This document shows, in pieces, positions 33,908 through 56,608 of a stretch of 57,571 bases of DNA (within the stretch, counting starts at the first letter, position 1; each line of letters starts with the position of its first letter). The notes under the pieces are model-generated. The model saw nothing but the letters and a program-made list of their open reading frames with translations, ran no database searches and was not told the origin of the DNA. Made by a program: the position numbers and the translations under genes. Location of the stretch: contig CAJUNE010000003.1 of NCBI GenBank assembly GCA_910587745.1, positions 1 to 57,571 on the forward strand, read 5' to 3'. The stretch comes from an uncultured Bacilli bacterium (GTDB taxonomy: Bacteria > Bacillota_I > Bacilli_A > RF39 > UBA660).

Positions 33908-35659
33908 TTATTCTAGAACAGCCTTTATTCTTCTAACACCAGCACTACTAGCTTCTTCCTTTTTAATTCTAAAAACTCCTAGTACTCCTGTGTGTTCTAC
34001 ATGAGGTCCTCCGCATATTTCTTTTGATACATCACCAATACTATAAACATTAACAATATCAGCATATTTTTCTATAAACATCGCTTCTGCTCCACTATTT
34101 ACAGCATCATTCTTATTCATTGTTTCCATTGTAACTGGTAAATCCTCTTGAATCCATTTATTAACTAGTTCCTCAACTTGTTTTTTCTCTTCATCAGTAA
34201 GTTTATGATCACAAGAAAAGTCAAAGCGCATTCTTTCCTCGGTAATATTACTACCTTTTTGATGAACATTTTTATCAACTACAACTTTTAAAGCGGCATT
34301 AAGTAAATGTGTAGCTGTATGATATTTTGTTTCCATTTCTCCACTACTAGCTAAACCGCCCTTAAATTTACCCGCACTAGCTGTACGCGATAGTTCTTGA
34401 TGAGCCTTAAACTTTTCATAAAAGCCCTGAATATCAACTGTTAAACCCTTTTCTTGAGCCATTTCTTCTGTAAGTTCTATAGGAAAGCCATAAGTATCAT
34501 ATAATCTAAAAGCATTCTCTTTATCAATAATAGAATTATCAATATGACTAATTAATTTATCAAATTCTTTTAATCCTTTTTCCAAAGTACGATTAAACTT
34601 AATACTTTCATTTTTTAATACATCTAAAACAATTTCTTTGTTGTCTTTAATTTCAGAATAATAATCTTCATACTTTGCTATTACTTCTAAAGCTATAGGA
34701 AGAGTCCAGTTTGTATTAGTATCTATTCCTAACTTTTTACCATGTCTAATAGCCCTTCTAATAAGTCTCCGCAAAATATAACCTTGATCTGTATTACTAG
34801 GTTTTATTCCAGCATAATCTGCACTAATAAATACAGCAGTTCTAATATGATCGGCAATTATACGCATGCTAACTTCATTTTCATTATAAGTCTTTTTACT
34901 AACACTTTCTATTGCTTCTATTATTTCTTTCCAAATAGAAGTTTTATAATTATCATCAACATTTTCTAATACAGCAACAACACGTTCTAAGCCCATTCCT
35001 GTATCAACATTTTTCTGTTCAAGTTCTTCAATCGTACCATCAGCATTTTTACGATATTCCATGAAGACATTATTCCAGATTTCTACCCAGCGATCATCTT
35101 TAGGATCAAAAACCTTTGGTATATCCTCATCACTTCTAAAATAGAATATTTCTGTATCTCCACCACAAGGACCAGTATCTCCTGCAATCCAAAAATTATC
35201 TTCCAAACCTAAATAAGCAATTCGCTCTTCTGGGATTCCGAGCTCTCTCCAAATTGTAGCTGCTACTTCATCGCGTGGAATATCATCATTTCCTTCAAAA
35301 ACAGTTACTGCAAGTCTATCAACAGGTATATTCAAAACTTTGGTTAAAAATTCAAAACTATACTCAATACTTTCTTTTTTAAAATAATCTCCTAAACTCC
35401 AATTCCCAAGCATTTCAAAAAAAGTATGATGTGTCTTATCTCCAATTTCCTCTAAATCAGTTAATCTAACGCATTTTTGATAATCGCAAAGTCTTGTTCC
35501 TTCTGGATGTTTTTTGCCAAGTAAGTAAGGAATTAACGGTTGCATTCCTGCAGTATTAAATAAAACAGAAGGATCATTTTCAGGAATTAAAGGAGCACTT
35601 GGTATTTGTATATGTCCATTACTTTTAAAATAATCTATAAATTTATCTTTTAAATTCAT
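33908..35659 (-). CDS. alaS: Alanyl-tRNA synthetase, short form (583 aa: catalytic plus editing domains, no C-Ala domain)
   Basis: QKCVR...HHTFFEMLGNWSLGDYFK (class II core), HTATHLL and CGGPHV (editing-domain zinc motifs). Confidence 0.8.
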   Translation of the reverse strand: MNLKDKFIDYFKSNGHIQIPSAPLIPENDPSVLFNTAGMQPLIPYLLGKKHPEGTRLCDYQKCVRLTDLEEIGDKTHHTFFEMLGNWSLGDYFKKESIEYSFEFLTKVLNIPVDRLAVTVFEGNDDIPRDEVAATIWRELGIPEERIAYLGLEDNFWIAGDTGPCGGDTEIFYFRSDEDIPKVFDPKDDRWVEIWNNVFMEYRKNADGTIEELEQKNVDTGMGLERVVAVLENVDDNYKTSIWKEIIEAIESVSKKTYNENEVSMRIIADHIRTAVFISADYAGIKPSNTDQGYILRRLIRRAIRHGKKLGIDTNTNWTLPIALEVIAKYEDYYSEIKDNKEIVLDVLKNESIKFNRTLEKGLKEFDKLISHIDNSIIDKENAFRLYDTYGFPIELTEEMAQEKGLTVDIQGFYEKFKAHQELSRTASAGKFKGGLASSGEMETKYHTATHLLNAALKVVVDKNVHQKGSNITEERMRFDFSCDHKLTDEEKKQVEELVNKWIQEDLPVTMETMNKNDAVNSGAEAMFIEKYADIVNVYSIGDVSKEICGGPHVEHTGVLGVFRIKKEEASSAGVRRIKAVLE

Positions 35660-36258: not shown

Positions 36259-37044
36259 TTAAGCCAAATGAGGTGCATATCTTTCAATGCTAAATTTTCT
36301 ACATTCAGTTTCTAAACGTTCAAAATAGTAATCCAAATCAATTTTCTTTTCTCTGATTAACTTTAATTCTGCTGTATCTAAAAGTTTAGCAGTATCATTA
36401 GCTCTTATAAAACCATTTAAGTAAATAGCCCAATTTTCCTCAGTGGCTCGAAAAAAGCCATTAATACCTAAATCCATAAAAAAATCTTCATTTCCAAAAC
36501 TAGCTGGACTCATAAAATTTTCTTTAAAATGGTAAATTACTTCTGGAATAAAGCGCGGAACTATTAAAAATTGTCTAAAAGTAGGATCAATGACATAGGC
36601 ATTACCATTAAAGATAGCAACAGCAAAAAAATGTGGAACTAGCTGAAGGCCTAAATTCTTAGTATGGATAATCATTACTTTTATACCCAAACTCTTACAT
36701 ATTTGATATACCATTATAGCTGCATATTTGCACAAATTCAAGCATGGATTTAAGTTAGTATACTCTATAAACCCACGTTCAAATAATTCATTATAAACTT
36801 CATTAACAATGTCACTAAATATAGGAATATTTATACTAAATAATGAATTTAAATCCCAATTAAAAACCCTCTTTTTCATAATACTGTTATCAAATTGTAA
36901 CCATAATATTCTTTTATCAATTTTAGATAATTCTTTTTCCTTTAAAAACAATTTAAGCCATAGTAATCTTATTCTTTCTCTCGCATTAACATCATTACAA
37001 TCAATATTTCCAATATCATTTATTATATCTTGAATTTCATTCAT
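36259..37044 (-). CDS. Hypothetical protein, possible transglutaminase-like cysteine peptidase fold
   Basis: A candidate Cys...His...Asp arrangement (NPCLNLCKYAA; VPHFFAV; YVIDPT). An AAAGGGGGA SD precedes the ATG at 37044. The assignment is weak. Confidence 0.35.
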   Translation of the reverse strand: MNEIQDIINDIGNIDCNDVNARERIRLLWLKLFLKEKELSKIDKRILWLQFDNSIMKKRVFNWDLNSLFSINIPIFSDIVNEVYNELFERGFIEYTNLNPCLNLCKYAAIMVYQICKSLGIKVMIIHTKNLGLQLVPHFFAVAIFNGNAYVIDPTFRQFLIVPRFIPEVIYHFKENFMSPASFGNEDFFMDLGINGFFRATEENWAIYLNGFIRANDTAKLLDTAELKLIREKKIDLDYYFERLETECRKFSIERYAPHLA

Positions 37045-37088
37045 ATTAAATCCCCCTTTCATAAAAAATAAAAGACTCTATAAGAGCC

Positions 37089-37631
37089 TTATTTTAAATT
37101 AGCAAGTAATTCGTCTTTTTTCATTGTAGAATAGCCTTTAACACCTTGTTCTTTAGCTATAGCTTTAAGTTCTGTTAAAGTCATTTCACTATAATCAGTA
37201 GCTTCTACCTTAGAAGCTTCTTTTTTAGTTTCTTTCTTCTCTTCTTTAGATTCTACAGCTTTCTTAACACCTTTACCGTTTAAAGCATTTTTACTAGTTT
37301 CTACTAATTTAGTAAATGCAGCTGGATTTTCAATAGCCATTTCGCTTAACATTTTACGGTTAATTTCGATTCCTGCTTTAGTTAACCCATTCATAAATTT
37401 AGAATAACTAATATCATTCATACGACAAGCTGCATTAATTCTTGTAATCCAAAGTTTACGAAAGTTTCTTTTATTTGCTTTTCTATCACGATAAGCATAT
37501 TCTCCACTATGAAATAATTGCTCTTGAGCAGTTTTATATAATCTATGTTTACTACCAAAGTAACCTTTAGCTTCTTTTAATACTTTTCTTCTTCTGTTTT
37601 TAGAAACAGTTCCACCTTTAACTCTTGTCAT
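37089..37631 (-). CDS. rplT: 50S ribosomal protein L20 with ~60-aa C-terminal extension ending in a Rho_N/SAP-like module
   Basis: The L20 core ([26 protein letters not shown]...) covers about 118 aa. It is followed by a Lys/Glu linker and [36 protein letters not shown]. Confidence 0.95.
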
Positions 37632-38381: not shown

Positions 38382-38393
38382 TTGCACCTCCAT

Positions 38394-38516
38394 AATTAAA
38401 AAGGTAGAATATTCCTATTCCACCTAAAAGACATATTATAAACTTCATAACTGGCCTTTTACCTATGAACTCATATTCATCAGGTGGAATAAAATTCGCT
38501 TTCCTTCTTAAATTTC
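38394..38516 (-). promoter_or_regulatory. L20-type ribosomal leader (transcription attenuator) upstream of infC-rpmI-rplT
   Basis: The terminator GGTGGAATA-ggaa-TATTCTACC plus TTTTT lies at 38403-38424. An upstream ATTCCACCT (38490-38482) can pair with AGGTGGAAT (38425-38417), which would form an antiterminator. Confidence 0.6.
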
Positions 38517-38522
38517 TCATTA

Positions 38523-38551
38523 ATTATAGTATATTATATGTATAAAGTCAA
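38523..38551 (-). promoter_or_regulatory. Near-consensus sigma-A promoter of the infC operon
   Basis: The minus strand reads TTGACT (38551-38546), a 17-nt spacer, then TATAAT (38528-38523). Confidence 0.7.
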
Positions 38552-38569
38552 GAATTTTTCTAATTTTTT

Positions 38570-39598
38570 CTAAAAACCTCTTTTTCTAGTTAAAAAGACA
38601 GTATCTTCTTCTCTGGCTTTAATATTAAAAATTTCTAAATCAAAAGCGCTATTTAAAGACCTATAAATCATTCCGTAAATATCTGAAGAAGTTAATCCAG
38701 CACTATTTTTTATTCCAAATTCCCCACTTAAATTATCTAAAGTATGGCAAAACCAATAATCAAATACCATTACACCATTATGATTTAGATTAATTTCAAA
38801 TATCTTCTTTAATCTATCTATAACTAATGCAAATTGATTAGAATCACTATTACATAAAATTTGAAAAATAAAAAGTAAAATATTTGTAATATCAATATAA
38901 TCATATTTTATTTCTGAGTGATCTTCCAAATATTCTAGAGCATCACCAAAAACAATATTTATTGAAGCCTTTTCTATTTTTTCTCTTATAGCATAATAAC
39001 CTTTCTTACTACTCAAATAAGTTATTAATGATTTATTTACTTTTAAATCATAATCAATCGCTTTAAAAAGATGATGCATTAAATCCTCTTTTGGATTTTT
39101 TGTCAATAAGATATCCCACGCATTAATATCAGCTTCATCATTTAAAGCTGGTTTCACACTTTTAAAAACATCATAAGACAAAAATTTATGACTATTACTA
39201 TCTAATAAAAAACGCTCATAATCAATCGCCGATAAAGTTTTAAAAGCAGCCAATCTTAATCTAAAAAATAATATTTGCAAATCATTATTTTCTAAAGCAG
39301 TTATATTTTTTATATCACGAGATAATAATTCAAGTAAAGTATCTCCTGTGCCTAAAATAATAAAGGCATTATTTACATCACTAGGTAAAGTTCTTTCTAA
39401 ATAATGTTGATTTTGTGTAGTAAAAATAAATGGTTTATCAATATAAACATCTGAATCTATCCCATCTCTGTTTATAACATTCTGTGCCTTAAAAAGAATA
39501 TCGGCACCCGGCATACTTTTAGGATAAACGCCAATACTATCTTTAAACATTCCAAATAGTCTATTCATCATTATTGGATCCATATAATCATTCCTCAT
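38570..39598 (-). CDS. DUF3419/BtaA-like SAM-binding-fold protein
   Basis: IILGTGDTLLELLS...ALENNDLQILFFRLRLAAFKTLSAIDYERFL resembles the DUF3419 pattern. This is a family call from memory. Confidence 0.4.
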   Translation of the reverse strand: MRNDYMDPIMMNRLFGMFKDSIGVYPKSMPGADILFKAQNVINRDGIDSDVYIDKPFIFTTQNQHYLERTLPSDVNNAFIILGTGDTLLELLSRDIKNITALENNDLQILFFRLRLAAFKTLSAIDYERFLLDSNSHKFLSYDVFKSVKPALNDEADINAWDILLTKNPKEDLMHHLFKAIDYDLKVNKSLITYLSSKKGYYAIREKIEKASINIVFGDALEYLEDHSEIKYDYIDITNILLFIFQILCNSDSNQFALVIDRLKKIFEINLNHNGVMVFDYWFCHTLDNLSGEFGIKNSAGLTSSDIYGMIYRSLNSAFDLEIFNIKAREEDTVFLTRKRGF

Positions 39599-40993: not shown

Positions 40994-41182
40994 TTAAGAG
41001 TTTTCACTATAATCAACTATATCAATATGATAATCTTGAAGTTTAATTTTAATATCATTTTTAAGAGTATTTAAAAACTTTTGTTTATAGGTATTTACCA
41101 TTAAAGTAGTAAGCATCATCAAGATAAAAACTACAAAGAAAGAATAAACCATATACATCGAAGCAAACCCTCTCTTTTTCAA
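40994..41182 (-). CDS. Small single-TM protein downstream of the peptide genes (candidate immunity protein; N-terminus is pseudopilin/ComGG-like)
   Basis: (M)KKRGFASMYMVYSFFVVFILMMLTTLMVNTY... A TTG at 41182 lies 8 nt after AAAGGAG; the track start at 41191 abuts the SD. Confidence 0.45.
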   Translation of the reverse strand: MKKRGFASMYMVYSFFVVFILMMLTTLMVNTYKQKFLNTLKNDIKIKLQDYHIDIVDYSENS

Positions 41183-41214
41183 AACTATCAACTCCTTTTA
41201 AAATTATAACAAAA

Positions 41215-41236
41215 AAGAGTTTAATTTAAAACCCTT
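41215..41236 (-). terminator. Intrinsic terminator after the third peptide gene
   Basis: The minus strand forms AAGGGTTT-taaatt-AAACTCTT (8 bp, one G-U) followed by TTTTTTG. Confidence 0.55.
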
Positions 41237-41245
41237 TTTCATTTA

Positions 41246-41398
41246 TTAGCAATAATTTTTAGTTTTACCTCTACGAAGCGTAGAACCAATCTTTCTTCCA
41301 AAATCAAAGATTGTTTTAAAAGCAGAGATAACAGCATTTACAAGCGCTGCACTTACTCCACCATAAATTTTTTGAAGTTCTATATTATCTAATTTCAT
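41246..41398 (-). CDS. Double-glycine-leader peptide 3 (50 aa)
   Basis: My translation is MKLDNIELQKIYGG|VSAALVNAVISAFKTIFDFGRKIGSTLRRGKTKNYC. The ATG overlaps the stop of peptide 2 (TAATG). Confidence 0.75.
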   Translation of the reverse strand: MKLDNIELQKIYGGVSAALVNAVISAFKTIFDFGRKIGSTLRRGKTKNYC

Positions 41399-41541
41399 TA
41401 GCACTTCTCCGGATGAAAATAGCCATAAACAACTGCGCTAATAAAAGTTAATCCAGCTGCAATTCCAAGTCCTAAAAACTTCAGAACAGTCCATCCTCCT
41501 CCTGTAATATTAGATAATTCATTAATACTAATATTTCTCAT
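41398..41541 (-). CDS. Double-glycine-leader peptide 2 (47 aa)
   Basis: My translation is MRNISINELSNITGG|GWTVLKFLGLGIAAGLTFISAVVYGYFHPEKC. The ATG overlaps the stop of peptide 1 (TAATG). Confidence 0.8.
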   Translation of the reverse strand: MRNISINELSNITGGGWTVLKFLGLGIAAGLTFISAVVYGYFHPEKC

Positions 41542-41672
41542 TATTTAATACCTCCAAAAACAACTTTAAATTTTTTTATAACATTAACCATGCTAATAAA
41601 TAAACTTGTAAAAGTAGTAACTATATTGCCACCACCACAAGCTATTAATTCATTTTTATTTAATTTTCCCAT
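41541..41672 (-). CDS. Double-glycine-leader peptide 1 (43 aa)
   Basis: My translation is MGKLNKNELIACGG(G)|NIVTTFTSLFISMVNVIKKFKVVFGGIK. It starts 17 nt downstream of the accessory gene stop. Confidence 0.7.
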   Translation of the reverse strand: MGKLNKNELIACGGGNIVTTFTSLFISMVNVIKKFKVVFGGIK

Positions 41673-41689
41673 TCTATCTACATCCTTTC

Positions 41690-42100
41690 TTAAAAAACTG
41701 AATTAATAATTTTCTTTAATAATCTTTGTTTATTATAGCAAAAATTAAGCTCAACAATTTCTTTATCTTCCAAACCATAAGTATTAGCAAAATTATATAA
41801 ATAATAACTAATTACATTTTTTTCATCTATCTCTATAGTTTTAGATAAAATATTAGGCTTTATATACTTATTGTTAAATTTAATTTTTTGAATATCTATA
41901 TTTGTAGGAATAGCCACAATTATTCTGCAATCTTCACTACAATTCACATATCCTCGAGTCAAATAGTGATCATAAACTTCTACATTTAAAGATATAACTA
42001 AAATAACTAATAAAAGAAAAATAAACATAATTGAAACAAGAAATAAATTTTTAGGTTTTTTTCTTAAAAATGCTTGTTTATTCTGAAATAAGTTTTCCAT
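41690..42100 (-). CDS. Small single-pass membrane protein, putative bacteriocin export accessory (or immunity) protein
   Basis: An N-terminal cytoplasmic basic stretch, one TM segment (LFLVSIMFIFLLLVILVISL) and a ~90-aa extracytoplasmic domain. It overlaps the ABC gene by 23 nt. Confidence 0.5.
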   Translation of the reverse strand: MENLFQNKQAFLRKKPKNLFLVSIMFIFLLLVILVISLNVEVYDHYLTRGYVNCSEDCRIIVAIPTNIDIQKIKFNNKYIKPNILSKTIEIDEKNVISYYLYNFANTYGLEDKEIVELNFCYNKQRLLKKIINSVF

Positions 42101-44144
42101 TTAACTCACCCATATCTAAAATCTGTGTAAACTTACTACTCACGTCTTTATGAGAAACATAAATAAGTGTACTGGTAGGATAATATTTTTTAATATCTTC
42201 TATAATATCTAACTCTAAATCAAAATTCACTTCACTCAAAGCTTCGTCTAAAATGAGTATTTTCGCTGATTTTAAAAGACCTCTAGCAAGTATTATTCTT
42301 TGTAGTTCTCCACCGCTTAAATTATTTTGCATTGCATTAATAATTGATTCATATCTATTAGGTCTTTTCTCCACTATAGATTCTATTCTACAAACTTCCA
42401 CTACTTTTTTAAAATCTTCATCTTTAACTTTTCGAAAACAAAGAATGTTATCTCTAATTGTTCCTGTAATAAGTTTTTCATTTTGACCCACATAAAGTAT
42501 ATTTTTTAAAGTAGTGCCTAAACTATAATCTGCCTCATTTATTCCCCCGATTTTTATTGTCCCATTAATATCTTTAGGATAAGCAAGCATATTACATATA
42601 GTACTTTTACCACTGCCACTTGGGCCCTTTAGAAAAACTTTATCACCCGCATCAATTTTAAAATTTACATTCTTTAAGATATCCGTAGTATTATATTTAA
42701 AAGAAACATCTATAAATTCAATACTATAACTATCCAATGTTTTAATACCTGTTTCATAATTATCACATTCAATATTTATAAATTCTGACAATTTACTAAA
42801 AGTTGCTTTTAAATAATTAAACTTTGGTATTAAATCTATACAATCTTGAATAGGATTAATAAAATAAAACATTAAGCTTTGAAAAGTAATAAGTGAAAGA
42901 AGCTCTAGTTTACCATCTGCAATCATCAAAATACCAATACTAATAACTAAAAAAGTTCCCATTTCATAAATAAATTCTTTAATAAAAGAGACGTTATTTA
43001 AAGTAGACTGCGTTTTAAAATTACTTTTAAACATTATAATTAATTTCTCTTCTAAATATTTTAAAAAATGATTAACTAAATTCAAGTTTTTTATACTAGT
43101 ATTTGCTTCAATATTCTCAACTAAACTAGAATTAAAAGTAGTCGTTGTATTAACATTATCTCTAACACACCTATAAATAAGTTTACTAAATAGAAGTCCT
43201 AAAATTACATAAATAAAAACTATCAAACAAAGCATAAAAAATAATTTACTATTTATGGAATATAAAACCACTACTGCTCCTATTACCAAAACCGTATTTA
43301 AAAGAACATTAGTAAAGAAATCTGCTAATAATTCTTTTATTTCGCTTAGATCTTGTATTCTAGATACAATTTCTCCCGTGCTACGATTTTGTATAAATTT
43401 TAAAGGAAGATTAAATATGTGAGATAAAAAATTCGAAAATAGTTCTACATCAAGATTACGATAAAAATAAGTAAGATAATAATTTTTAATAAAATTCAAG
43501 AAAACTTTAAAAAAGAAAGTTAGTGCGAATATAATTATTATAGCTTTCAAATATATATTATCTTCCCCATGATTAATCGCAGAAACTGCAATTTGAAAAT
43601 AAAAACTTGTTAAAATTGTAAAAAACATTACAATTAGATTAATAATACAGATTTTTATAAAAACAGATTTATTCTTTATAATTAATTTCATTAACAAAGA
43701 GGAAATTGTTAAGTCTTTATCATATTTTAAAATTTTATCTATAGGTGTTAATAGAATTAAAATATTATCCCAAATATTATTAAAATCTTCCATTTTCATT
43801 TTTATTTTTCCTACAGCTGGATCCATAAGCCACACATAATTTTTAGATATCTTATAAACAACCACAAAGTGATTTAATCCGTTTTTAAGAACCACATGTG
43901 CTATAGCAGGCAAATAGATATTTCTATTTTTTACATCGTCCACAAAAACCCCCATTGCCTCAAAACCATAACTTTTAGCAGTCTCTACTAAATTATAGGC
44001 AGTTGTTCCAACTCCAGTTGTAAAAGTATCATCTCTTATTTTTTCAATAGGAACATATCCATCATAATATTTAATAATACATGCCAAACTACAAGCTCCA
44101 CAATCTTTCAAATCATGTTGTTTTACAACTTCAATTTTAGCCAC
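42078..44144 (-). CDS. Bacteriocin-processing ABC transporter with N-terminal C39 peptidase domain
   Basis: QHDLKDCGACSLACIIKYY (catalytic Cys), HFVVVYKI (His), 6 TM segments, and GPSGSGKST / LSGGELQRI / ILILDEA. A GTG start follows AAGGGAGAG by 7 nt. Confidence 0.9.
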   Translation of the reverse strand: MAKIEVVKQHDLKDCGACSLACIIKYYDGYVPIEKIRDDTFTTGVGTTAYNLVETAKSYGFEAMGVFVDDVKNRNIYLPAIAHVVLKNGLNHFVVVYKISKNYVWLMDPAVGKIKMKMEDFNNIWDNILILLTPIDKILKYDKDLTISSLLMKLIIKNKSVFIKICIINLIVMFFTILTSFYFQIAVSAINHGEDNIYLKAIIIIFALTFFFKVFLNFIKNYYLTYFYRNLDVELFSNFLSHIFNLPLKFIQNRSTGEIVSRIQDLSEIKELLADFFTNVLLNTVLVIGAVVVLYSINSKLFFMLCLIVFIYVILGLLFSKLIYRCVRDNVNTTTTFNSSLVENIEANTSIKNLNLVNHFLKYLEEKLIIMFKSNFKTQSTLNNVSFIKEFIYEMGTFLVISIGILMIADGKLELLSLITFQSLMFYFINPIQDCIDLIPKFNYLKATFSKLSEFINIECDNYETGIKTLDSYSIEFIDVSFKYNTTDILKNVNFKIDAGDKVFLKGPSGSGKSTICNMLAYPKDINGTIKIGGINEADYSLGTTLKNILYVGQNEKLITGTIRDNILCFRKVKDEDFKKVVEVCRIESIVEKRPNRYESIINAMQNNLSGGELQRIILARGLLKSAKILILDEALSEVNFDLELDIIEDIKKYYPTSTLIYVSHKDVSSKFTQILDMGELNGKLISE

Positions 44145-46551: not shown

Positions 46552-47355
46552 TTAATCTAATATTATAACATCTAATTTATTTTCTTGTATACCTTTTATG
46601 AAATAATTAATAACTAAATAACCGCTTTTATTCACATATAAGGCATATGAACTATCATCATCTAAAGAACTTAAAGTATTTACAATATCTATTTGTGGTA
46701 TATCTTCTACTATCGTTTGTTCTTTTTCTAGTTTTTCTTGAATTATTTCTTTAATTCTGTCTAAAGAAATATCAAAATCTTCCATAAGTCTATTTTTAGA
46801 TAATAAATCTCCTGTATTGGTATCAAATGTATAAGCGCTAACTTTGGTATTTTTAGTGCCATCATTACAATTATATTCAAAAAGACTATTAACTATTGTT
46901 GCATAATTTTTATAAAAATAACGTGTATATTTATTATAAGTAGCTTCATATACATCGCTATCTTTAAATAAAATATTTTCTTGTTCTTCAGGAGTTAATT
47001 CCACTTCACCAATAGTTTTATACGTTTTCTCATTTGCTTCTCTTTCACTATTTAAAAAAGTTGTAATAGTTTTAGTATCACGAGAATCAAAATTAAATAC
47101 TACATCTTGATATGTTATATCACGTATTTCATTTTTAATCACTACATTATCAAAATAAATATAATCTTTAGTATTATCTATACGAATATCTTCATCTTTT
47201 TCTTTATTTTTACTAGCCATTTCTGTAGTCTTCTTATCATTTTTTTCGATATCTTTTGTAAGCATTATCATAGTTATATAACCACCAACAATGAGTACAA
47301 CAATAAAAAACAGAAATATAGCTGCTTTTACTTTTCCGCTTCTTATATCATCCAT
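46552..47355 (-). CDS. Membrane-anchored extracytoplasmic protein of unknown function (267 aa)
   Basis: An N-terminal TM segment (AAIFLFFIVVLIVGGYITMIML) followed by an Asp/Glu/Lys/Thr-rich soluble domain. Confidence 0.5.
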   Translation of the reverse strand: MDDIRSGKVKAAIFLFFIVVLIVGGYITMIMLTKDIEKNDKKTTEMASKNKEKDEDIRIDNTKDYIYFDNVVIKNEIRDITYQDVVFNFDSRDTKTITTFLNSEREANEKTYKTIGEVELTPEEQENILFKDSDVYEATYNKYTRYFYKNYATIVNSLFEYNCNDGTKNTKVSAYTFDTNTGDLLSKNRLMEDFDISLDRIKEIIQEKLEKEQTIVEDIPQIDIVNTLSSLDDDSSYALYVNKSGYLVINYFIKGIQENKLDVIILD

Positions 47356-47360
47356 AAGCT

Positions 47361-47948
47361 TTACTCCTTAATTCCTAAATAATCTTTAAACATTAATCTA
47401 AATTTATTTAATTGTATTGCTCTATTATTTGCATTCCAATAATCCTCAGGGCTAAGATTCCCCTTCATTATAGCTGTTTCATTATCAAAATGTATAACTT
47501 TACCGTTTTTTATAATAAACATTGTTGGAGCATAAATATTTTGTGTTCCGTTATCATTTGTATATGTATAACTGCTAAGTTTTAATACAACACTTTGATA
47601 AGTAGCATTTTTAGTTTCTCTATCTTTCTTAAAATCATAATAAAGAATTTCCTTTACCCCAAGCTCTTTAGCTACAGTATTAAGCATTTCTGCATAATAA
47701 CCACTCCACTTATTAGTAGGAAAGCCCATGAAAACCACAGCATTTCCATTTTTAAATCTAGTATATACATCTTGTGCATTAGCATAAACAAATACATTAT
47801 CACTTGATACATTACTATATTCTAAATCAAACTTTTCATTATCAACAACTATTTCTTTAGTAAAATCCTTTTTACCCACAAATATAAAAGCCGCAATAAT
47901 TAAAATAAATAATATGCCTTGTATAGCTCTTTTTAAATTTTTATTCAT
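47361..47948 (-). CDS. Membrane-anchored thioredoxin-fold protein lacking the CxxC motif (Cys-free)
   Basis: The thioredoxin-fold landmarks are AVVFMGFPTNKWSGYYAEML (the CxxC position reads KWSG) and YAPTMFIIKNGKV (cis-Pro loop). An N-terminal TM segment is present. Confidence 0.45.
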   Translation of the reverse strand: MNKNLKRAIQGILFILIIAAFIFVGKKDFTKEIVVDNEKFDLEYSNVSSDNVFVYANAQDVYTRFKNGNAVVFMGFPTNKWSGYYAEMLNTVAKELGVKEILYYDFKKDRETKNATYQSVVLKLSSYTYTNDNGTQNIYAPTMFIIKNGKVIHFDNETAIMKGNLSPEDYWNANNRAIQLNKFRLMFKDYLGIKE

Positions 47949-48064: not shown

Positions 48065-48936
48065 CCATTAATTTGATTCATTACTTCTTCAGCAAAGTTT
48101 TCACATCTTTTTTCCATGCCTTCGCCTACTTCATAACGTACCATAGAAATAAGCTCACCACCATTATTTTTAACATAAGTAGCAACACTTATATCTCCAT
48201 CTTTAATAAATGCTTGTTCTGCAAGGCAAATTTCTTTAAAGTATTTCTTAATTCTGCCTTCAACCATTTTTTCAGCAATATCAGCAGGTTTGCCTTCAGA
48301 CATTGCAATTTCTTTTTGAACTTCACGTTCTCTATTCACAACATCTTCAGGCACCTCACTTTCAAATACATAAAGTGGTTTCATAGCAGCTGCTTGCATT
48401 GCAACATCTTTAGCAACATCTGAATTAGCATTCTTAACAACTGTTAAAACAGCAATTTTACCACCCATATGTAGGTAAGCCCCAAAATTTTCGTCATCAT
48501 TTTTTTCTACAACTTCAATTCTTCTTAAAGATAATTTTTCACCGATTTTAGCAGTCTTAGCAACAATTAAATCAGCAATAGTTCCTTCTTCACAAGATAG
48601 TTTTAAAGCTTCTTCTAAAGTATTAATTGTGCTATTTAAAATAGTATTACCAATTGTATCTATCATTCCAGTAAACTCTTCATTCTTACTAACAAAATCA
48701 GTTTCACTATTTACTTCTAATATAATAGCACGATTACCATTTACATATATATTAGCTAAGCCTTCAGCAGCAATACGTGAAGCTTTCTTTTCACTTTTTG
48801 CAATACCTTTTTCACGAAGCCAATCAATAGCTTCTTCCATATTTCCATTAGTTTCTGCAAGAGCTTTCTTACAATCCATCATTCCAGCACCAGTTTTTTC
48901 ACGTAAATCTTTTACCATACTTGCTGTAACTTCCAT
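48058..48936 (-). CDS. tsf: Elongation factor Ts
   Basis: VKDLREKTGAGMMDCKKALAETNGNMEEAIDWLREKG. Confidence 0.95.
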   Translation of the reverse strand: MEVTASMVKDLREKTGAGMMDCKKALAETNGNMEEAIDWLREKGIAKSEKKASRIAAEGLANIYVNGNRAIILEVNSETDFVSKNEEFTGMIDTIGNTILNSTINTLEEALKLSCEEGTIADLIVAKTAKIGEKLSLRRIEVVEKNDDENFGAYLHMGGKIAVLTVVKNANSDVAKDVAMQAAAMKPLYVFESEVPEDVVNREREVQKEIAMSEGKPADIAEKMVEGRIKKYFKEICLAEQAFIKDGDISVATYVKNNGGELISMVRYEVGEGMEKRCENFAEEVMNQINGN

Positions 48937-49006
48937 TTTTCTTCCTCCTTAAATATCATTATTATATTAAATTAAAATATAAAATTAAAATATAAAAATT
49001 TTAAAA

Positions 49007-49951
49007 TTATTTTAAATTTTCAATTAATTCATCTTTTTTCATAGTTGAATAACCTTTAACACCTTTTTCTTTAGCAATAGCTTTAAGTTCTGTTAAAGTC
49101 ATTTCACTATAATCTGTAGTTTTTTCTTCTTTTACTTCTTTTTTTGTTTCATTCTTTTCTACATTTTTTTCATTCTTAGGAGCTTTTTCTTCAGTCTTAA
49201 CTAAATCTTCCATAGTTTTAGACTCTACTTTAGCTTTTTTATCTTCTTCAGTAACGTAATCAACCATTTCTAAATTACGTGCTTCACAAATAGCATTATT
49301 AAGTACTCCAAGTAATACTTTAACACTTCTAACAGCATCATCATTACCAGGAATTACAAAATCAACATCATCTGGATCACAATTAGTATCTACAATACCA
49401 AATACTGGAATACGAAGTTTACGAGCTTCTCTAATTGCATTAATTTCTTTTTTAGGATCAACAATAATTAAAGCATTAGGTAATTTATTCATATCACGGA
49501 TACCAGCTAAAATTTTATTTAATTTTTCATATTCTTTTTTTAGTCCAATAACTTCTTTTTTAGGTAAAAGATCAAATTTACCTTCTTTTTCCATATTTTC
49601 GATTTCTTCTAATCTTCTAATTCTTCTTCTAATAGTTCTAAAATTAGTTAAAGTTCCTCCTAACCAGCGTTCAGTAACATAATAAGAATTACTACGATTA
49701 GCTTCTTCTTGAGAAACTTCTTGAGCTTGTTTCTTAGTTCCAACAAATAAGAAAGTTCCTCCATTATCAGCGATAGCTTTTACTTGAGTGTAAGCTTCCT
49801 CTAATTTTTTTGTAGTTTTTTCTAGGTCGATAATATAAATATCTTCTCTAGTTCCAAAAATGTATTCTTTCATCTTTGGATTCCATCTTTTAGTTTGATG
49901 TCCAAAATGAACACCTGCTTCTAATAAATAACTCATAGAAACAACTGACAT
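49007..49951 (-). CDS. rpsB: 30S ribosomal protein S2 with ~80-aa C-terminal extension ending in a Rho_N/SAP-like module
   Basis: The S2 core ([19 protein letters not shown]...) is followed by a Lys/Glu-rich linker and [36 protein letters not shown]. Confidence 0.95.
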
Positions 49952-50115
49952 ATAAATCATCCATCCTTTCGTTTTTACCTCTTTTTGCTTTCAAACATTT
50001 AACTCCACCACTCTTCGCGGCACTAGGACTTAAACTAAACAAAAATGTGTATTTGCAATTTATTTGCCGATATTATTATATTATAAAGTATATGAAAAAA
50101 CAAGTAAAACTTAAC

Positions 50116-51027
50116 TTAATTCCCAAGTTTTTCCACATTTCTTTCAAATAATTTTTTCCATTCTTCCAAACTTTCCAAATCTTTTTCAGCAATTAAATAT
50201 TTTTTAACTGCTTTTTGTAGCTTTAATATATCTTTTTTAGCTTTTAAAATATGAATTTTTCTATGACAGTTAGGACACAAAGCAACTGTATTATAGAGCG
50301 CATCAGGGCCATCATTAGCAAGATTAATTATATGATGTTCCTCTAAAAAAGGATAACCATTTTTATCATTAAATGGTGCTTCATTCTTACATAAATCACA
50401 TTTCCCATTAGCTCTATATTTAGTATATTCAGCGATATATAAATCCCTACTTCTTTTAATAACTTCTCCGCTCTTACTAACAGGTTTAATTTTAGATGCA
50501 TTCTTAGCTCTTAATTTTAATTCATGAACTGGCAATTTTCTTACTTTTTTTATTTTTTCTTCCATACTCAATTCTACATCTTTATCTAAAACTGTTAAAT
50601 TAACTGAATTATTTAAACGCTTTAAAGGAAATTTAAAAACACGTCGCAAATCACCATTTTTATCTAACTCATCCATTTCAAGCACATTACCTGCAACTTC
50701 TACTTCACCAGCATAATAATATTCATCAGACTTATAAGACTCAAATAAATAAACATTAATATTTTTTTCTTTAGAATAGAGCAACGTCTTATTTTGAGAA
50801 AAATTTATATTTTGATCGCCAACCATTCCCATACCTGTATAATAAAGTATTCCATTATTATCCCAAACATCATCATAAAGACTATTATTATGCTTTGCAA
50901 TAAGTATTAATGAATTTGTTTTTAAAGATCTTCTCATCCCACCTTGATTAGAACATTTAAAAACAGTACTTATATCATTATTTGAATATTTATTTCCTAT
51001 TACTAATTTATTATTTATTTTTGTCAT
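50116..51027 (-). CDS. Putative modification-dependent (Type IV) restriction endonuclease: SRA/YDG-like PUA-fold reader fused to an HNH nuclease
   Basis: The N-terminal half has QGGMRRS...LYDDVWDNNGILYYTGMGMVGDQ...NKTL (SRA/YDG-like). The C-terminal half has CDLC...EEHHIINLANDGPD...NTVALCPNCHRKIH (HNH with a CxxC zinc pair). Confidence 0.6.
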   Translation of the reverse strand: MTKINNKLVIGNKYSNNDISTVFKCSNQGGMRRSLKTNSLILIAKHNNSLYDDVWDNNGILYYTGMGMVGDQNINFSQNKTLLYSKEKNINVYLFESYKSDEYYYAGEVEVAGNVLEMDELDKNGDLRRVFKFPLKRLNNSVNLTVLDKDVELSMEEKIKKVRKLPVHELKLRAKNASKIKPVSKSGEVIKRSRDLYIAEYTKYRANGKCDLCKNEAPFNDKNGYPFLEEHHIINLANDGPDALYNTVALCPNCHRKIHILKAKKDILKLQKAVKKYLIAEKDLESLEEWKKLFERNVEKLGN

Positions 51028-53061: not shown

Positions 53062-54495
53062 ATGGAAAATAAAATCGTCAAAAGAATCCAAGAAGAATTC
53101 AAAAAAAATCCTGATTTAACTACTAAAAAAATAAAATTATCTCTACTTGATACTGTATATGTAATTTATTTAGAAACTATTAGTTCCAGTGATAAAGTAA
53201 ATGATTATATCTTAAAAAATTTAAGTAATTTAAGTGGCTTAAAAAGTAAAAAAATAAGAAACTTAGATTCTATATTACCCGGTCCTAATACCAAAGAAAT
53301 TAAAAACTATGATGAGATAGAATTTTACATAACTAATGGATTTACTATTGTAGTAAGAAATAATACGATTCTTGCCATTGAAACCAAAGCTGATATTAAT
53401 CGAAGTGTTGCTGAACCTAATAGTGAACCAGCTACTAATGGACCCAAAGACGCTTTTACAGAAAATTATCAAATTAATTTAGGTTTAATAAAAAGAAGAA
53501 TTAAATCTCATACTTTAAAAACTGATGAGTATATTGTTGGACGTAAAACAAGCACTAAAGTTGGCGTTTTATATTTTGATGATATTGCAGATTTAGAACA
53601 AGTTGAATTAATCAAAAAGAAAATATCTAAAATAGATATTGATGGCATAATTGATACAGCTTCTTTAGGTCAATTAATAACAGATGAATTTATTACCCAC
53701 TTTCCTACTTATATGATGACAGAAAGACCCGATAATGTTTCTCGTGCCCTACTTGAAGGTAAAATTGCTATTACAGTTGATACTTCACCTTATGTTATAA
53801 TACTACCCGCCTTTCTAGCAGACTTTATTAATCCAGGAGTAGATCAGTATAATAAAAACAAAAATGTTAACTTTATTAAAATACTTCGCTTTGTTTGTTT
53901 CTTTTTATCAATGATAGCGCCTGCCGTTTATATTGCTCTTACAAATTATAATCAAGAAACTATTCCAACAGACCTTTTAGTTAGTTTTGCTGTTCAAAGA
54001 GATGGTGTCCCCTTTCCGGCAATAGTTGAAGCTTTTATGATGCTCTTTATATGTGAGATGTTACGAGAAAGTGACCTTAGATTCCCTAACTCGTATGGTA
54101 GTGCCATTTCTATTTTAGGTGCTTTAGTCTTAGGAGATGCAGCTGTTTCTGCAGGAATAGTTAGTCAAATTATGATTATAGTTATTGCTCTAACATTTAT
54201 ATCCAGTTTAATATTTACTGAAGTAGAACTAGTAAGTGCCTTAAGACATTTAAGATTTATCTTTCTAATTTTAGCATCATTCTATGGCATTATGGGTATA
54301 GTCTTTGGTTTATTCTATTTTCTTATTAGAATTAATGATACTTACTCCTTTGGTAAACCTTACTTCTATCCGATTGTTCCTTTTGATAAAACATACATCT
54401 TTAAAACTTTACTTAAATCTCGTGCTAAAAAAGATACTAAACGTAGTAAATTGCTTACTAAGAAAAACTTTACAAGACAAGGAGAAAACGCATGA
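53062..54495 (+). CDS. Spore germination protein, GerA/GerKA family (A subunit)
   Basis: GerA-family length and architecture, with a C-terminal TM bundle and the ...EMLRESDLRFPN... region. It is the first gene of an A-C-B operon. Confidence 0.85.
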   Translation: MENKIVKRIQEEFKKNPDLTTKKIKLSLLDTVYVIYLETISSSDKVNDYILKNLSNLSGLKSKKIRNLDSILPGPNTKEIKNYDEIEFYITNGFTIVVRNNTILAIETKADINRSVAEPNSEPATNGPKDAFTENYQINLGLIKRRIKSHTLKTDEYIVGRKTSTKVGVLYFDDIADLEQVELIKKKISKIDIDGIIDTASLGQLITDEFITHFPTYMMTERPDNVSRALLEGKIAITVDTSPYVIILPAFLADFINPGVDQYNKNKNVNFIKILRFVCFFLSMIAPAVYIALTNYNQETIPTDLLVSFAVQRDGVPFPAIVEAFMMLFICEMLRESDLRFPNSYGSAISILGALVLGDAAVSAGIVSQIMIIVIALTFISSLIFTEVELVSALRHLRFIFLILASFYGIMGIVFGLFYFLIRINDTYSFGKPYFYPIVPFDKTYIFKTLLKSRAKKDTKRSKLLTKKNFTRQGENA

Positions 54496-55580
54496 AGAAA
54501 CTATTAATATTATTAATTATTCCTTTCATTTTAAGTGGCTGTTATGACTATAATGAGCTTAATGATTTAGCTATCGTCTCAGGTATTGGTATTGATTATG
54601 AAAATGAAGAATATATAGTTACTTATGAAATATTAAGTACTAAAAAAGAAGGAGAAACCTCAGCCTCCTCTAGTACTTATAACGTTACAAGTCGTGGTAA
54701 AACAGTAGTTGAAGCTTTTAGTAATAATGGTAATTTAATGGATAAAGTACCCTACTTTGAACATGTAGATGTAGTTGTTATAAGTGAAGATATAGCTAAA
54801 AACAATTTAAAAGAAGTTGGCGAATATATTATTAGAACATCTAAACTTCGAAACGAAAGTTTTCTAGCTATTGCTACTAATTCCAGTGCTAAAGATGTTA
54901 TAGAAGCTAAAACCAAGGAAAAACCTGTTGCCTCAAGTTTTATAATGAATTTACTCGAAAATAATAAAAATAGTGCTAGTGCTGGTTACTTTATGCCATA
55001 TACAGAAATATTAAATAGTATTCTAACAAATGGTGAAGATGCTATTTTATCAGCAGTTACTGTAAAAAAAAATGGTGAAGAAAAAAATATTGAATTAGTA
55101 GGTCTAGGTGTCTTTGAAGATTTTAAATTAAAACATATTTTTGATACCAAGGAAGCAGCCATTTTAAATGTCTTAAATAATTTTGATGCTGAAACAGTAT
55201 TCTTTGAAAAGAAATGTAACAATGGTGTTATAGTAGTATCCATTTATGAATCAAGTATCAAAATAGAACCTAATAATGAAAATGTTAAAATAAGCGGCAA
55301 ATTAAATGTTCGAATTAATGAGGACACTTGTAATGATAATTTAAGAGATGAAAAAGTCTATGAAAAACTCCAAAAAGAATTTACTAAAATAGTTGAAGAT
55401 AAAATGCTTAATGTTTTAGAAACTCTTCAAACAGAAAAATCAAATGCTCTTAAAATTGGTAAATCTTATTATGATAAATATCGTAAACCAGAATACAAAT
55501 TATGGACTAACCAAAGATTTGTCTTCGATTTAGATTTAAAAATAAATAAGAAAGGATTAATATTTGAGGTGAAAAAATGA
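54492..55580 (+). CDS. Spore germination lipoprotein, Ger(x)C family
   Basis: Lipobox LSGC followed by YDYNELNDLAIVSGIGIDY. It overlaps the A gene by ATGA. Confidence 0.85.
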   Translation: MKKLLILLIIPFILSGCYDYNELNDLAIVSGIGIDYENEEYIVTYEILSTKKEGETSASSSTYNVTSRGKTVVEAFSNNGNLMDKVPYFEHVDVVVISEDIAKNNLKEVGEYIIRTSKLRNESFLAIATNSSAKDVIEAKTKEKPVASSFIMNLLENNKNSASAGYFMPYTEILNSILTNGEDAILSAVTVKKNGEEKNIELVGLGVFEDFKLKHIFDTKEAAILNVLNNFDAETVFFEKKCNNGVIVVSIYESSIKIEPNNENVKISGKLNVRINEDTCNDNLRDEKVYEKLQKEFTKIVEDKMLNVLETLQTEKSNALKIGKSYYDKYRKPEYKLWTNQRFVFDLDLKINKKGLIFEVKK

Positions 55581-56608
55581 AAGAAAAACCATTTATCATA
55601 TATTTTTTAACCCAAAGTTTATTCTTAGGTTTTGGTATCTCTATTTTATTTAGTATTTCCAGTAAAGATTGTTATATAGGAGCTCTTTTAGGATTATTAA
55701 TTGGTTTTGTTATAATCTACTTATATTCTAAATTTTTAGAATTAAAAAAGAAAAGAACTCTTAAAGAAATACTAAAACAAAATAAAATTCTCGGCATATT
55801 TGTTTATCTTCTAATTATTATAGCTTCTTATATTTTACTAATCTATTCTCTAGTTATATATAAAGTATTCGTAGCTAGTTTTATGTTAATTAAAACCCCA
55901 GAAATTCTTCTACTCATACCTATTGTTATATTTGGAACTTATGGTGCATTTAAAGGATTAACAGTTATAAATCGTGTAGCAGAATCCTTAATACCTCTAG
56001 CTTTAGGTTTAGCAGCCTTTGCTTTTCTAGGGGTTGTTGGTTTATTTGACACATCTAATTTTCTTCCAATTTTAACTACTACTCCATCTAACTTTTTTAA
56101 AACAGCCATAACTTTCGCTGGCATAAGTACATTTCCTAATTTACTTACTATTCATTATCAAGAAAAACCAAAATATATGCTAACTACTTATTCCCTAACT
56201 TGTTTACTGATAATCGGTACTATCATTTATATAAATGGTATTCTAGGCGAAGAACTAGTTCACATCTATCGTTTCCCAGAATATATGGTTTTAAAACAAT
56301 TAAAACTATTCCAATTTATTGAAAAAGTTGAAAACATTTTATCAATCGCATGGATATTTAACATTTTTATTCTTTTAATGACATCTATTCATTCAATTAA
56401 AGAATTATTGCCTAATAAAAAACCTAAAATAATAACAGTCATAATTCTAATATTAACCTTATATATGATAGACAAAGTATTCGCTTTTAATTATGTTAAT
56501 GAACTTCGTATTTATAAATTATTACCATATATAAGTATAATTATTCCTTTAATAATTATTATACCTTTATTATATTTAGCTAAAAAAAAGAAAAGTAATC
56601 ATAACTAG
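55577..56608 (+). CDS. Spore germination permease, GerAB/GerKB family (B subunit)
   Basis: A ~10-TM APC-like protein that overlaps the C gene by ATGA. Confidence 0.8.
   Translation: MKEKPFIIYFLTQSLFLGFGISILFSISSKDCYIGALLGLLIGFVIIYLYSKFLELKKKRTLKEILKQNKILGIFVYLLIIIASYILLIYSLVIYKVFVASFMLIKTPEILLLIPIVIFGTYGAFKGLTVINRVAESLIPLALGLAAFAFLGVVGLFDTSNFLPILTTTPSNFFKTAITFAGISTFPNLLTIHYQEKPKYMLTTYSLTCLLIIGTIIYINGILGEELVHIYRFPEYMVLKQLKLFQFIEKVENILSIAWIFNIFILLMTSIHSIKELLPNKKPKIITVIILILTLYMIDKVFAFNYVNELRIYKLLPYISIIIPLIIIIPLLYLAKKKKSNHN

Follow-up and report, generated by a model that had tools for sequence, protein, structure and literature searches.

A Rho_N domain at the C-termini of ribosomal proteins bS2 and bL20 in uncultured gut Bacilli: old fusions and probable episodic gene conversion between rpsB and rplT

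Introduction

Gene conversion is known to drive the concerted evolution of duplicated translation genes, as with tufA and tufB of enterobacteria. In the present study, we analyzed a 57,571-nucleotide stretch of contig CAJUNE010000003.1 (GenBank assembly GCA_910587745.1; the whole stretch is called the window below) from an uncultured Bacilli bacterium of the mouse gut (GTDB lineage Bacillota_I; Bacilli_A; RF39; UBA660), in which rpsB and rplT, the genes of ribosomal proteins bS2 and bL20, end in nearly identical copies of one small domain. The two cases are alike in that dispersed repeats in essential translation genes would be kept similar by non-crossover recombination. Unlike tufA and tufB, which are whole-gene paralogues, rpsB and rplT are non-homologous genes that would be homogenised only partially, over about 110–160 nt of their 3' ends.

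The closest relative of the domain is the N-terminal helix-extended loop-helix (HeH) subdomain of Rho (PF07498). The module falls into the same family by hidden Markov model, has the same predicted fold, and finds its best sequence matches in the PDB in Rho of M. tuberculosis and others; the conserved loop motif K-G-Y-S-x-M-K/R-K of Rho aligns with it. Unlike the Rho subdomain, the copies described here are C-terminal, sit on a long linker predicted to be disordered and are attached to ribosomal proteins. The SAP, HeH and LEM domains, which are classic DNA binders, have the same helix-extended loop-helix architecture, and the module resembles them further as a promiscuous terminal unit that also occurs in tandem arrays. 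However, it did not reach the Pfam cutoff for SAP, and those domains are mostly eukaryotic DNA binders.

The arrangement also resembles that of RHON1 from Arabidopsis chloroplasts, in which a Rho-N motif follows a highly charged stretch at the C-terminus of an unrelated protein, and the last 40 amino acids, comprising this motif, bind RNA, including rRNA segments, in gel shifts (PMC3458557). RHON1 differs in being a plant RNase E partner and not a ribosomal protein, in having the motif in one protein, and in that no concerted evolution has been described for it. Lineage-specific extensions of bacterial and organellar ribosomal proteins likewise combine a conserved core with a clade-specific tail on the solvent side; in the present case, by contrast, the same folded domain is found on one protein of each subunit, and the copies appear to co-evolve. 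No description of Rho_N fusions to S2 or L20 was found in the literature searched.

Results

The 3' Ends of rpsB and rplT Encode the Same Module

The two genes and the parts of their shared end are as follows:

49007–49951, minus strand: rpsB, ribosomal protein bS2 with a C-terminal extension, 314 aa (Pfam Ribosomal_S2, E = 5e-97, residues 9–223; Rho_N, residues 281–313)
37089–37631, minus strand: rplT, ribosomal protein bL20 with a C-terminal extension, 180 aa (Pfam Ribosomal_L20, E = 2e-46, residues 3–109; Rho_N, residues 147–178)
49010–49117, minus strand: S2 copy of the 36-aa Rho_N module, followed by the stop codon at 49007–49009 (PF07498, 41.7 bits against a cutoff of 24.9)
37092–37199, minus strand: L20 copy of the 36-aa Rho_N module, followed by the stop codon at 37089–37091 (PF07498, 42.2 bits against a cutoff of 24.9)
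49077–49114, no strand assigned: S2 side of the 38-nt identical run, within the 5' half of the module, equal to 37159–37196
37159–37196, no strand assigned: L20 partner of the 38-nt run, equal to 49077–49114

Both genes encode otherwise normal ribosomal proteins: bS2 (PF00318) scored 323.7 bits and bL20 (PF00453) 156.9 bits in Pfam, each over the full profile. The operon context was canonical, with tsf (elongation factor EF-Ts) downstream of rpsB, and with rplT last in infC-rpmI-rplT, after the genes for initiation factor IF3 and L35. The ATG used by the homologues of rpsB gives 314 aa, and the ATG upstream, at 49960, gives 317 aa. An extension of about 80 residues beyond the S2 core, as proposed in an earlier reading made from the sequence only, proved to be real, as the Pfam S2 domain ends at residue 223.

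The 3' ends of rpsB and rplT lie on the same strand as direct repeats 11.9 kb apart. An ungapped alignment of the terminal 114 nt of rpsB (49007–49120) and of rplT (37089–37202), anchored on the stop codons, gave identity at 103 of 114 positions (90.4%). The sequence-only reading had counted about 90% identity, roughly 12 mismatches and a run of about 36 nt by hand; the computed values are 11 mismatches and a run of 38 nt, so that its numbers were slightly off and the identity was not much lower than its manual count. Without the stop codon, the S2 and L20 copies agreed at 99 of 108 nt and at 33 of 36 aa. The common protein ending consists of 17 shared residues, K or Q, 13 further shared residues, I or L, E or A, and the final NLK. 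In a repeat search of the window, no direct repeat was larger than this pair (159 nt at 84%; blastn E = 1e-37), and neither tblastn nor blastn found a third copy of the module in the window.

The similarity between the two loci stopped at the stop codons, and the downstream flanks were unrelated (tsf follows rpsB). Directly after rplT, one further feature was detected:

37072–37090, minus strand: intrinsic-terminator-like hairpin with a T-run (terminator scan: 1 found against 0.0 expected)

On the other side of the module, the 45 nt adjoining it were 69% identical between the genes and encoded ETKKE in both, in the same register. The claim that the preceding linkers are not alignable therefore did not hold for this stretch.

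The Module Is a Rho_N Domain on a Charged Linker

The Rho_N family (PF07498) was matched above the gathering score in both proteins, with E values of about 1e-10. A PDB profile search with 13 tails matched only Rho N-termini (7oqh, 4e-6; 8hsj, 6e-5), and 16 positions were invariant in the alignment of the 13 tails. The single-sequence AlphaFold2 (AF2) model of the 52-aa S2 tail consisted of a helix (24–34), a 9-residue loop and a second helix (44–51), with a predicted local distance difference test (pLDDT) score of 94–95; the L20 model showed the same helix, loop and helix elements. In a Foldseek search of the PDB, 7 of 7 hits were Rho, with a root-mean-square deviation of 1.6–2.1 Å over 33–36 columns; the E values of 2–7 were not significant, the domain being tiny. 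The SAP domain (PF02037) reached 15 bits in Pfam, below its cutoff of 23.9, which indicated a related fold but not membership. The identity of the two proteins as Rho factors was rejected, since Pfam gave just Ribosomal_S2 or Ribosomal_L20 plus Rho_N; no match to the other Rho domains (RNA-binding PF07497/CSD-like and RecA-type ATPase) was found by Pfam in the S2 or L20 protein.

Core and module are joined in both proteins by a Lys/Glu-rich linker:

49118–49246, minus strand: S2 linker, residues 236–278 (43 aa), 13 K+R and 13 D+E, predicted disordered (composition; AF2)
37200–37280, minus strand: L20 linker, residues 118–144 (27 aa), predicted disordered (composition; AF2)

The pLDDT was about 61–73 over the 16 linker residues included in the 52-aa S2 tail model, and below 50 over residues 124–144 of the L20 model, which was built from a 44-sequence alignment. 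These models suggested that each protein is composed of a normal ribosomal core, a flexible charged leash and an HeH domain.

Both Fusions Occur throughout a Large Clade

The fusion architecture was present in 120 of the 120 best S2 homologues listed (77–100% identity, except for one 524-aa protein) and in 120 of the 120 best L20 homologues listed (most at 73–100% identity, one 293-aa protein at 55%). A scan with one genome per species returned at least 542 confirmed stretches in uncultured gut Bacilli; among the best 80 of these, 78 lay at the end of an S2 or L20 gene, and 2 were cut off at the start of the locus. The metagenome-assembled genomes (MAGs) were labelled as uncultured Bacilli, Tenericutes, 'Mycoplasma sp. 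CAG:776' or Candidatus Ventrenecus, and their hosts were mouse, rabbit, human, chicken and roe deer. The exact S2 protein was found on 10 contigs and the exact L20 protein on 14, and at least 91% of the k-mers of 48800–50000 were present in 20 public runs, which mostly carried the label mouse gut or gut metagenome. One gene-biased residue, Ile versus Leu at module codon 31, was common to several species. A search for homologues of the module only returned just 21 short fragments, from which copies per genome were not countable, and the search of representative genomes was dominated by multi-repeat Rho_N proteins, in which the domain forms tandem arrays.

These results indicated that both fusions are fixed across a large clade, every listed homologue of either gene having the tail. 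The clade-wide distribution therefore excluded the recent module duplication that the sequence-only reading had proposed. Taken with the profile and structure matches, we regard it as close to certain that the module is a Rho_N domain and that both fusions are ancient.

Two homologues had unusual lengths. The 524-aa S2 homologue (P0003; 70% identity over 82% of the query) has a much longer linker and still ends in Rho_N, and the 293-aa L20 homologue (P0130) has an extra PF12452 match and likewise ends in Rho_N. These proteins possibly represent a neighbouring clade, or fused or mis-called genes.

Background Similarity of the Two Modules

The background set consisted of 49 S2 and 109 L20 modules from different sources, giving 5333 cross-genome S2-by-L20 pairs; a metagenome scan supplied 80 further loci, none with S2 and L20 on one contig, which were used as a background distribution only. 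Over the 5333 pairs, module identity had a mean of 0.75 and a maximum of 0.93. In another comparison, the S2 module of a sister species was 94% identical to the L20 module of the window. Set against the 5333 pairs, the window pair lay in the top 0.23% for identity and in the top 0.08% for run length. The GC content at third codon positions (GC3) of the window genes was 0.13. At same-residue positions, 27 of 32 codons of the window pair were identical, compared with 19.6 expected from the codon usage of the window (P = 0.002). The repeat thus exceeds what chance would give. Judged from these comparisons, most of the 90% identity is nevertheless clade-wide background, produced by strong protein constraint and a GC3 of about 13%. 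The assertion that the likeness is not just convergent protein similarity was borne out, in that the modules are homologous and their codon identity goes beyond protein identity and codon bias.

Within-Genome Excess of Similarity

We compared 12 genomes with both tails, namely the window, seven GTDB MAGs, three species obtained through exact-protein look-ups, and genome B, which is the nearest relative of the window and whose two contigs come from one sample. A 10-kb flank around the S2 loci did not in any case extend as far as the L20 module (L167 stops within the L20 core), and the L20 loci were fetched separately. Under independent evolution since an old duplication, the S2 module of a genome would match its own L20 module no better than the L20 modules of other genomes. 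The values within and across genomes were as follows:

Nucleotide identity: 0.856 within, 0.821 across (permutation p = 3e-6; 12 pairs)
Same-codon fraction at same-residue sites: 0.827 within, 0.738 across (p < 3e-6; 12 pairs)
Longest identical run: 25.3 nt within, 18.4 nt across (p = 1.7e-4; 12 pairs)
Same-codon fraction predicted from codon usage: 0.619 within, 0.602 across (11 pairs)
Shared rare nucleotide states per pair: 0.82 within, 0.15 across (p = 0.0015; 11 pairs)

For the first 11 pairs, the same-codon excess held after subtraction of the codon-usage prediction (p = 5e-5) and after double-centring for lineage-specific divergence. Rare states common to both genes of one species included the codons ACC and AAG and a C at position 7 of the module. 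Paralogues within a genome were on average more alike (0.856) than orthologues of different genomes (0.825 and 0.832). The S2 and L20 modules formed no separate clades and were gene-biased only at codon 31 (Ile vs. Leu) and codon 8 (Thr vs. Ala). Between the S2 modules of the window and genome B, 5 differences fell within 26 nt, and genome B had the L20 state at 4 of them. The S2–L20 identity within a genome ranged from 0.79 to 0.92 among lineages.

The linkers gave a similar result. Identity between linkers of orthologues from different species was at the random level (0.50–0.52), whereas the two genes of a genome resembled each other more closely in the 30–45 nt adjoining the module (p = 0.001–0.007; 11 pairs). 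VETKEEAK preceded the module in both genes of one species with 82% nucleotide identity, and genome B carried ETKKETSKKE in both genes, identical at 29 of 30 nt, with a one-codon indel. We read these linker stretches as the clearest signal of conversion; together with the clustered L20-state sites, they would mark short conversion tracts running in either direction. Residues that vary together could reflect the adaptation of both proteins to one ligand, but this would leave the joint variation of synonymous sites and linker stretches unexplained.

Several observations weigh against this interpretation. Cross-genome S2–L20 identity among the 12 related genomes was already high (mean 0.82, up to 0.91–0.94). 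In the window itself, a Sawyer-type run test was not significant (P = 0.23 for a run of at least 38 nt given 9 differences placed by site variability), and the window pair was without any shared rare variant. The 12 genomes are related and not phylogenetically independent, and 2 of the 12 pairs join S2 and L20 loci of one species from different samples; for either of these species, the four places checked all had the same L20 module DNA. Finally, the orthologous modules of the window and genome B (0.95–0.96) were closer than the paralogues (0.91–0.92), and conversion would therefore be episodic, and not continuous or frequent. Overall, the results suggested that gene conversion probably contributes to the similarity of the S2 and L20 modules. 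Of the 'ongoing gene conversion' suggested by the sequence-only reading, an episodic, short-tract process thus stood, as a statistical result over 12 genomes and their mosaic patterns, whereas the window on its own does not prove it.

Behaviour of the Repeat in Assemblies

The junctions were examined in Logan contigs, which showed only that the graph branches at the shared run. The k = 31 contigs of three independent mouse-gut runs broke at the 38-nt run, with ends at 37160/37167 and 49084/49085, and in one mouse-gut run the shared stretch was a separate contig of 38 nt. Three contigs (L081, L083 and L084) ran from the L20 core and module into the tsf flank, and one (L082; coverage 1.4) ran from S2 and its module into the flank downstream of L20. 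Apparent swaps were also seen among database proteins: the S2 protein P0025 had an L20-type end, and the L20 proteins P0124, P0129, P0131, P0137 and P0145 had S2-type ends. Such swapped tails were rejected as proof of conversion, as the whole downstream flank was swapped too in the three that were fetched (P0025, P0129 and P0137). The swaps are probably chimeric repeat-junction contigs, or conceivably junctions of rare 12-kb duplications or excisions, and they were kept out of the conversion evidence. In addition, orphan open reading frames (ORFs) of 31 aa that start at a Met of the module (MTLTELK…, P0394–P0404) carry the annotation 'Rho termination factor N-terminal domain-containing protein'.

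Neighbouring Genes in the Window

A germinant-receptor operon (GerA, GerAC and spore permease; 53062–56608, plus strand) lies in this 26%-GC genome, relatives of which are labelled Tenericutes or Mycoplasma. The operon is also found upstream of rpsB in relatives, which suggests that the lineage forms spores. The position directly upstream of rpsB is occupied by a 303-aa protein gene (50116–51027, minus strand) with an HNH nuclease domain and a weak match to the modified-cytosine-binding SAD/SRA domain, which may be a modification-dependent restriction enzyme; in relatives, different genes occupy this place. Between tsf and frr (46552–47948, minus strand), there are ORFs of 195 and 267 aa with N-terminal hydrophobic segments and no Pfam match. 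ORFs of similar size are found there in relatives, and in many bacteria pyrH sits at this place.

A bacteriocin-like cluster (41000–44144, minus strand) comprises a C39-peptidase ABC exporter of 688 aa, an accessory ORF of 136 aa and several ORFs of 40–65 aa, one of which (41246–41404) has a double-glycine leader (…IYGG). The cluster is kept between frr/AI-2E and rpsU in relatives. At only 583 aa, the alanyl-tRNA synthetase (33908–35659, minus strand) is as long as that of a relative (L179), whereas a typical bacterial enzyme has about 870 aa; its catalytic domain and its second additional domain were both recognised. Near rplT, a 267-aa ORF without a family (36259–37062, minus strand) and a 342-aa ORF with a weak DUF3419 match (38570–39598, minus strand) are both absent from close relatives, in which rplT is directly followed by a DNMK-like kinase gene, and infC follows an AAA_18 gene. 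These two ORFs look like strain-specific insertions flanking infC-rpmI-rplT. Apart from five tRNAs, neither an L20-leader upstream of infC (38393–38570, minus strand) nor another Rfam element was found at the gathering score in the window.

Discussion

Origin of the Similarity between the Two 3' Ends

We propose that three additive causes would account for the likeness of about 90%: strong purifying selection that acts in both hosts on almost all residues of the module, extremely AT-biased codon usage (GC3 about 13%), and episodic short-tract non-crossover conversion between the 3' ends, with tracts that sometimes extend into the proximal linker. A 38-nt identical run should be long enough for homologous recombination. 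Crossover between the repeats would delete or duplicate about 12 kb with the essential genes tsf, frr, infC and rpmI, and therefore only non-crossover conversions should persist. The account as a whole, in which old fusions, constraint, AT-biased codons and episodic conversion are combined with a nucleic-acid tether, is the one that we favor with moderate confidence.

Independent evolution since an ancient duplication, with purifying selection and AT-biased codons explaining the DNA similarity without any conversion, would agree with the high cross-genome identities (0.82 on average, up to 0.91–0.94), the 16 nearly invariant positions of the 13-sequence tail alignment and the run test that was not significant in the window alone. 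It is harder to reconcile with the synonymous-codon excess within genomes, which persists beyond genome-specific codon usage (p = 5e-5), and with the rare variants common to both genes within genomes. The lineage-specific identical stretches in the unconstrained linker, the clustered L20-type substitutions in one S2 orthologue, and paralogues that are no more diverged than orthologues also speak against it, and we consider it unlikely. Another explanation would place a shared RNA element, such as a structure or a small-RNA target, in the 3' ends of both mRNAs behind the nucleotide conservation. Cross-genome paralogues did share more codons (0.728) than the 0.602 predicted by codon usage, and the S2 segment folded better than its shuffles (z = −2.7). 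However, the L20 segment folded no better than shuffles (z = +0.8), its predicted fold differed, and no Rfam family matched either segment. The structural explanation was dropped, and such an element seems very improbable.

The 90% nucleotide identity and the 38-nt run of the window could be taken to mean that the module was copied lately from one gene to the other in this species, by duplication or transfer. Against this, the fusions are found in all listed homologues down to 73–77% identity and in MAGs from five kinds of host, and the gene-biased residues (Ile vs. Leu at module codon 31) recur across species; a recent event of this kind has hardly any probability left. The same low standing applies to mis-assembly across the repeat, by which one tail would have been attached artificially. 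The repeat does mislead assemblers (L081–L084), and the orphan 31-aa 'Rho_N domain' ORFs are present in databases. On the other hand, identical S2 proteins were found on 10 contigs and identical L20 proteins on 14, 20 runs hold the sequence (at least 91% of the k-mers of 48800–50000), both linker-side branches join the shared run in three independent runs, and in hundreds of MAGs, built with a variety of assemblers, both fusions are followed by the correct genes. The assembly artefact, which the sequence-only reading had named as a possible objection, was thus refuted for the window. With these explanations weighed, ancient fusions shaped by constraint, codon bias and episodic conversion remain our preferred reading.

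Possible Function of the Tails

On the ribosome, bS2 sits close to the mRNA exit and to the site of S1, and bL20 has its globular part at the surface of the 50S subunit. Flexible tethers would place an HeH domain that binds nucleic acid with low specificity on the solvent side of both subunits. That the two domains are so nearly identical, only one or two residues being specific to either gene, suggests that they share a ligand, which would most plausibly be RNA, as with the isolated C-terminal Rho-N motif of RHON1. We tentatively put forward, by analogy and at somewhat less than even confidence, that the tails act as an RNA- or nucleic-acid-binding tether. A point against this assignment is that domains of the HeH/SAP type can bind DNA or proteins as well as RNA.

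The same evolutionary history could go with another function, the tail serving as a DNA or nucleoid tether, or as a protein–protein docking module, which would bring both subunits, and other tagged proteins, to a common scaffold or membrane anchor. In metagenomes, the tail (module 70–89% identical) was found on the small membrane-anchored proteins P0297, P0330 and P0350, on the Hsp20-like C-terminal fragment P0389 and on a thioredoxin-like membrane protein at locus L116, so that, as far as these sequences go, it appears not to be restricted to ribosomal proteins. The near-identical linker-plus-module tails of these hosts, the weak SAP-domain matches and the tandem Rho_N arrays in other proteins point toward such a function. 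Some of these other hosts, however, come from short contigs and could be chimeras, and the one isolated Rho-N tail that has been tested, that of RHON1, binds RNA (PMC3458557). We therefore consider a DNA or docking role doubtful, and less probable than the nucleic-acid-binding tether proposed above.

A bolder idea is that the tail is a clade-specific address tag, with which ribosomal subunits and the sporadic membrane, Hsp20-like and thioredoxin-like hosts would bind one ligand (RNA, the AT-rich nucleoid or each other), thereby organising the siting, clustering or hibernation of ribosomes. Gene conversion would then keep all copies ligand-compatible, and, as a conjecture, the lineage is possibly without Rho and/or S1. 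Rho is absent from all Mycoplasmatota and from 30% of Bacillota surveyed (PMC11347177). We regard the address tag as a long shot.

The shared 3' end has a practical cost: short-read assemblies break at the repeat, and chimeric rplT-tsf and rpsB-flank contigs as well as orphan annotations enter public databases. For the biology of these bacteria, the main point is that a folded domain is present on one protein of each ribosomal subunit and is nearly identical across a large clade of uncultured gut Bacilli; this near-identity argues for a real shared function of the tails on the ribosome. The concerted evolution would be unusual, as it would concern only a 3' stretch of about 110–160 nt in two otherwise unrelated essential genes. 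If the tails bind RNA or DNA, they would offer a testable handle on mRNA recruitment or ribosome positioning in reduced-genome Bacilli, and an address tag, if true, would represent a means of localising bacterial ribosomes that has not been described before.

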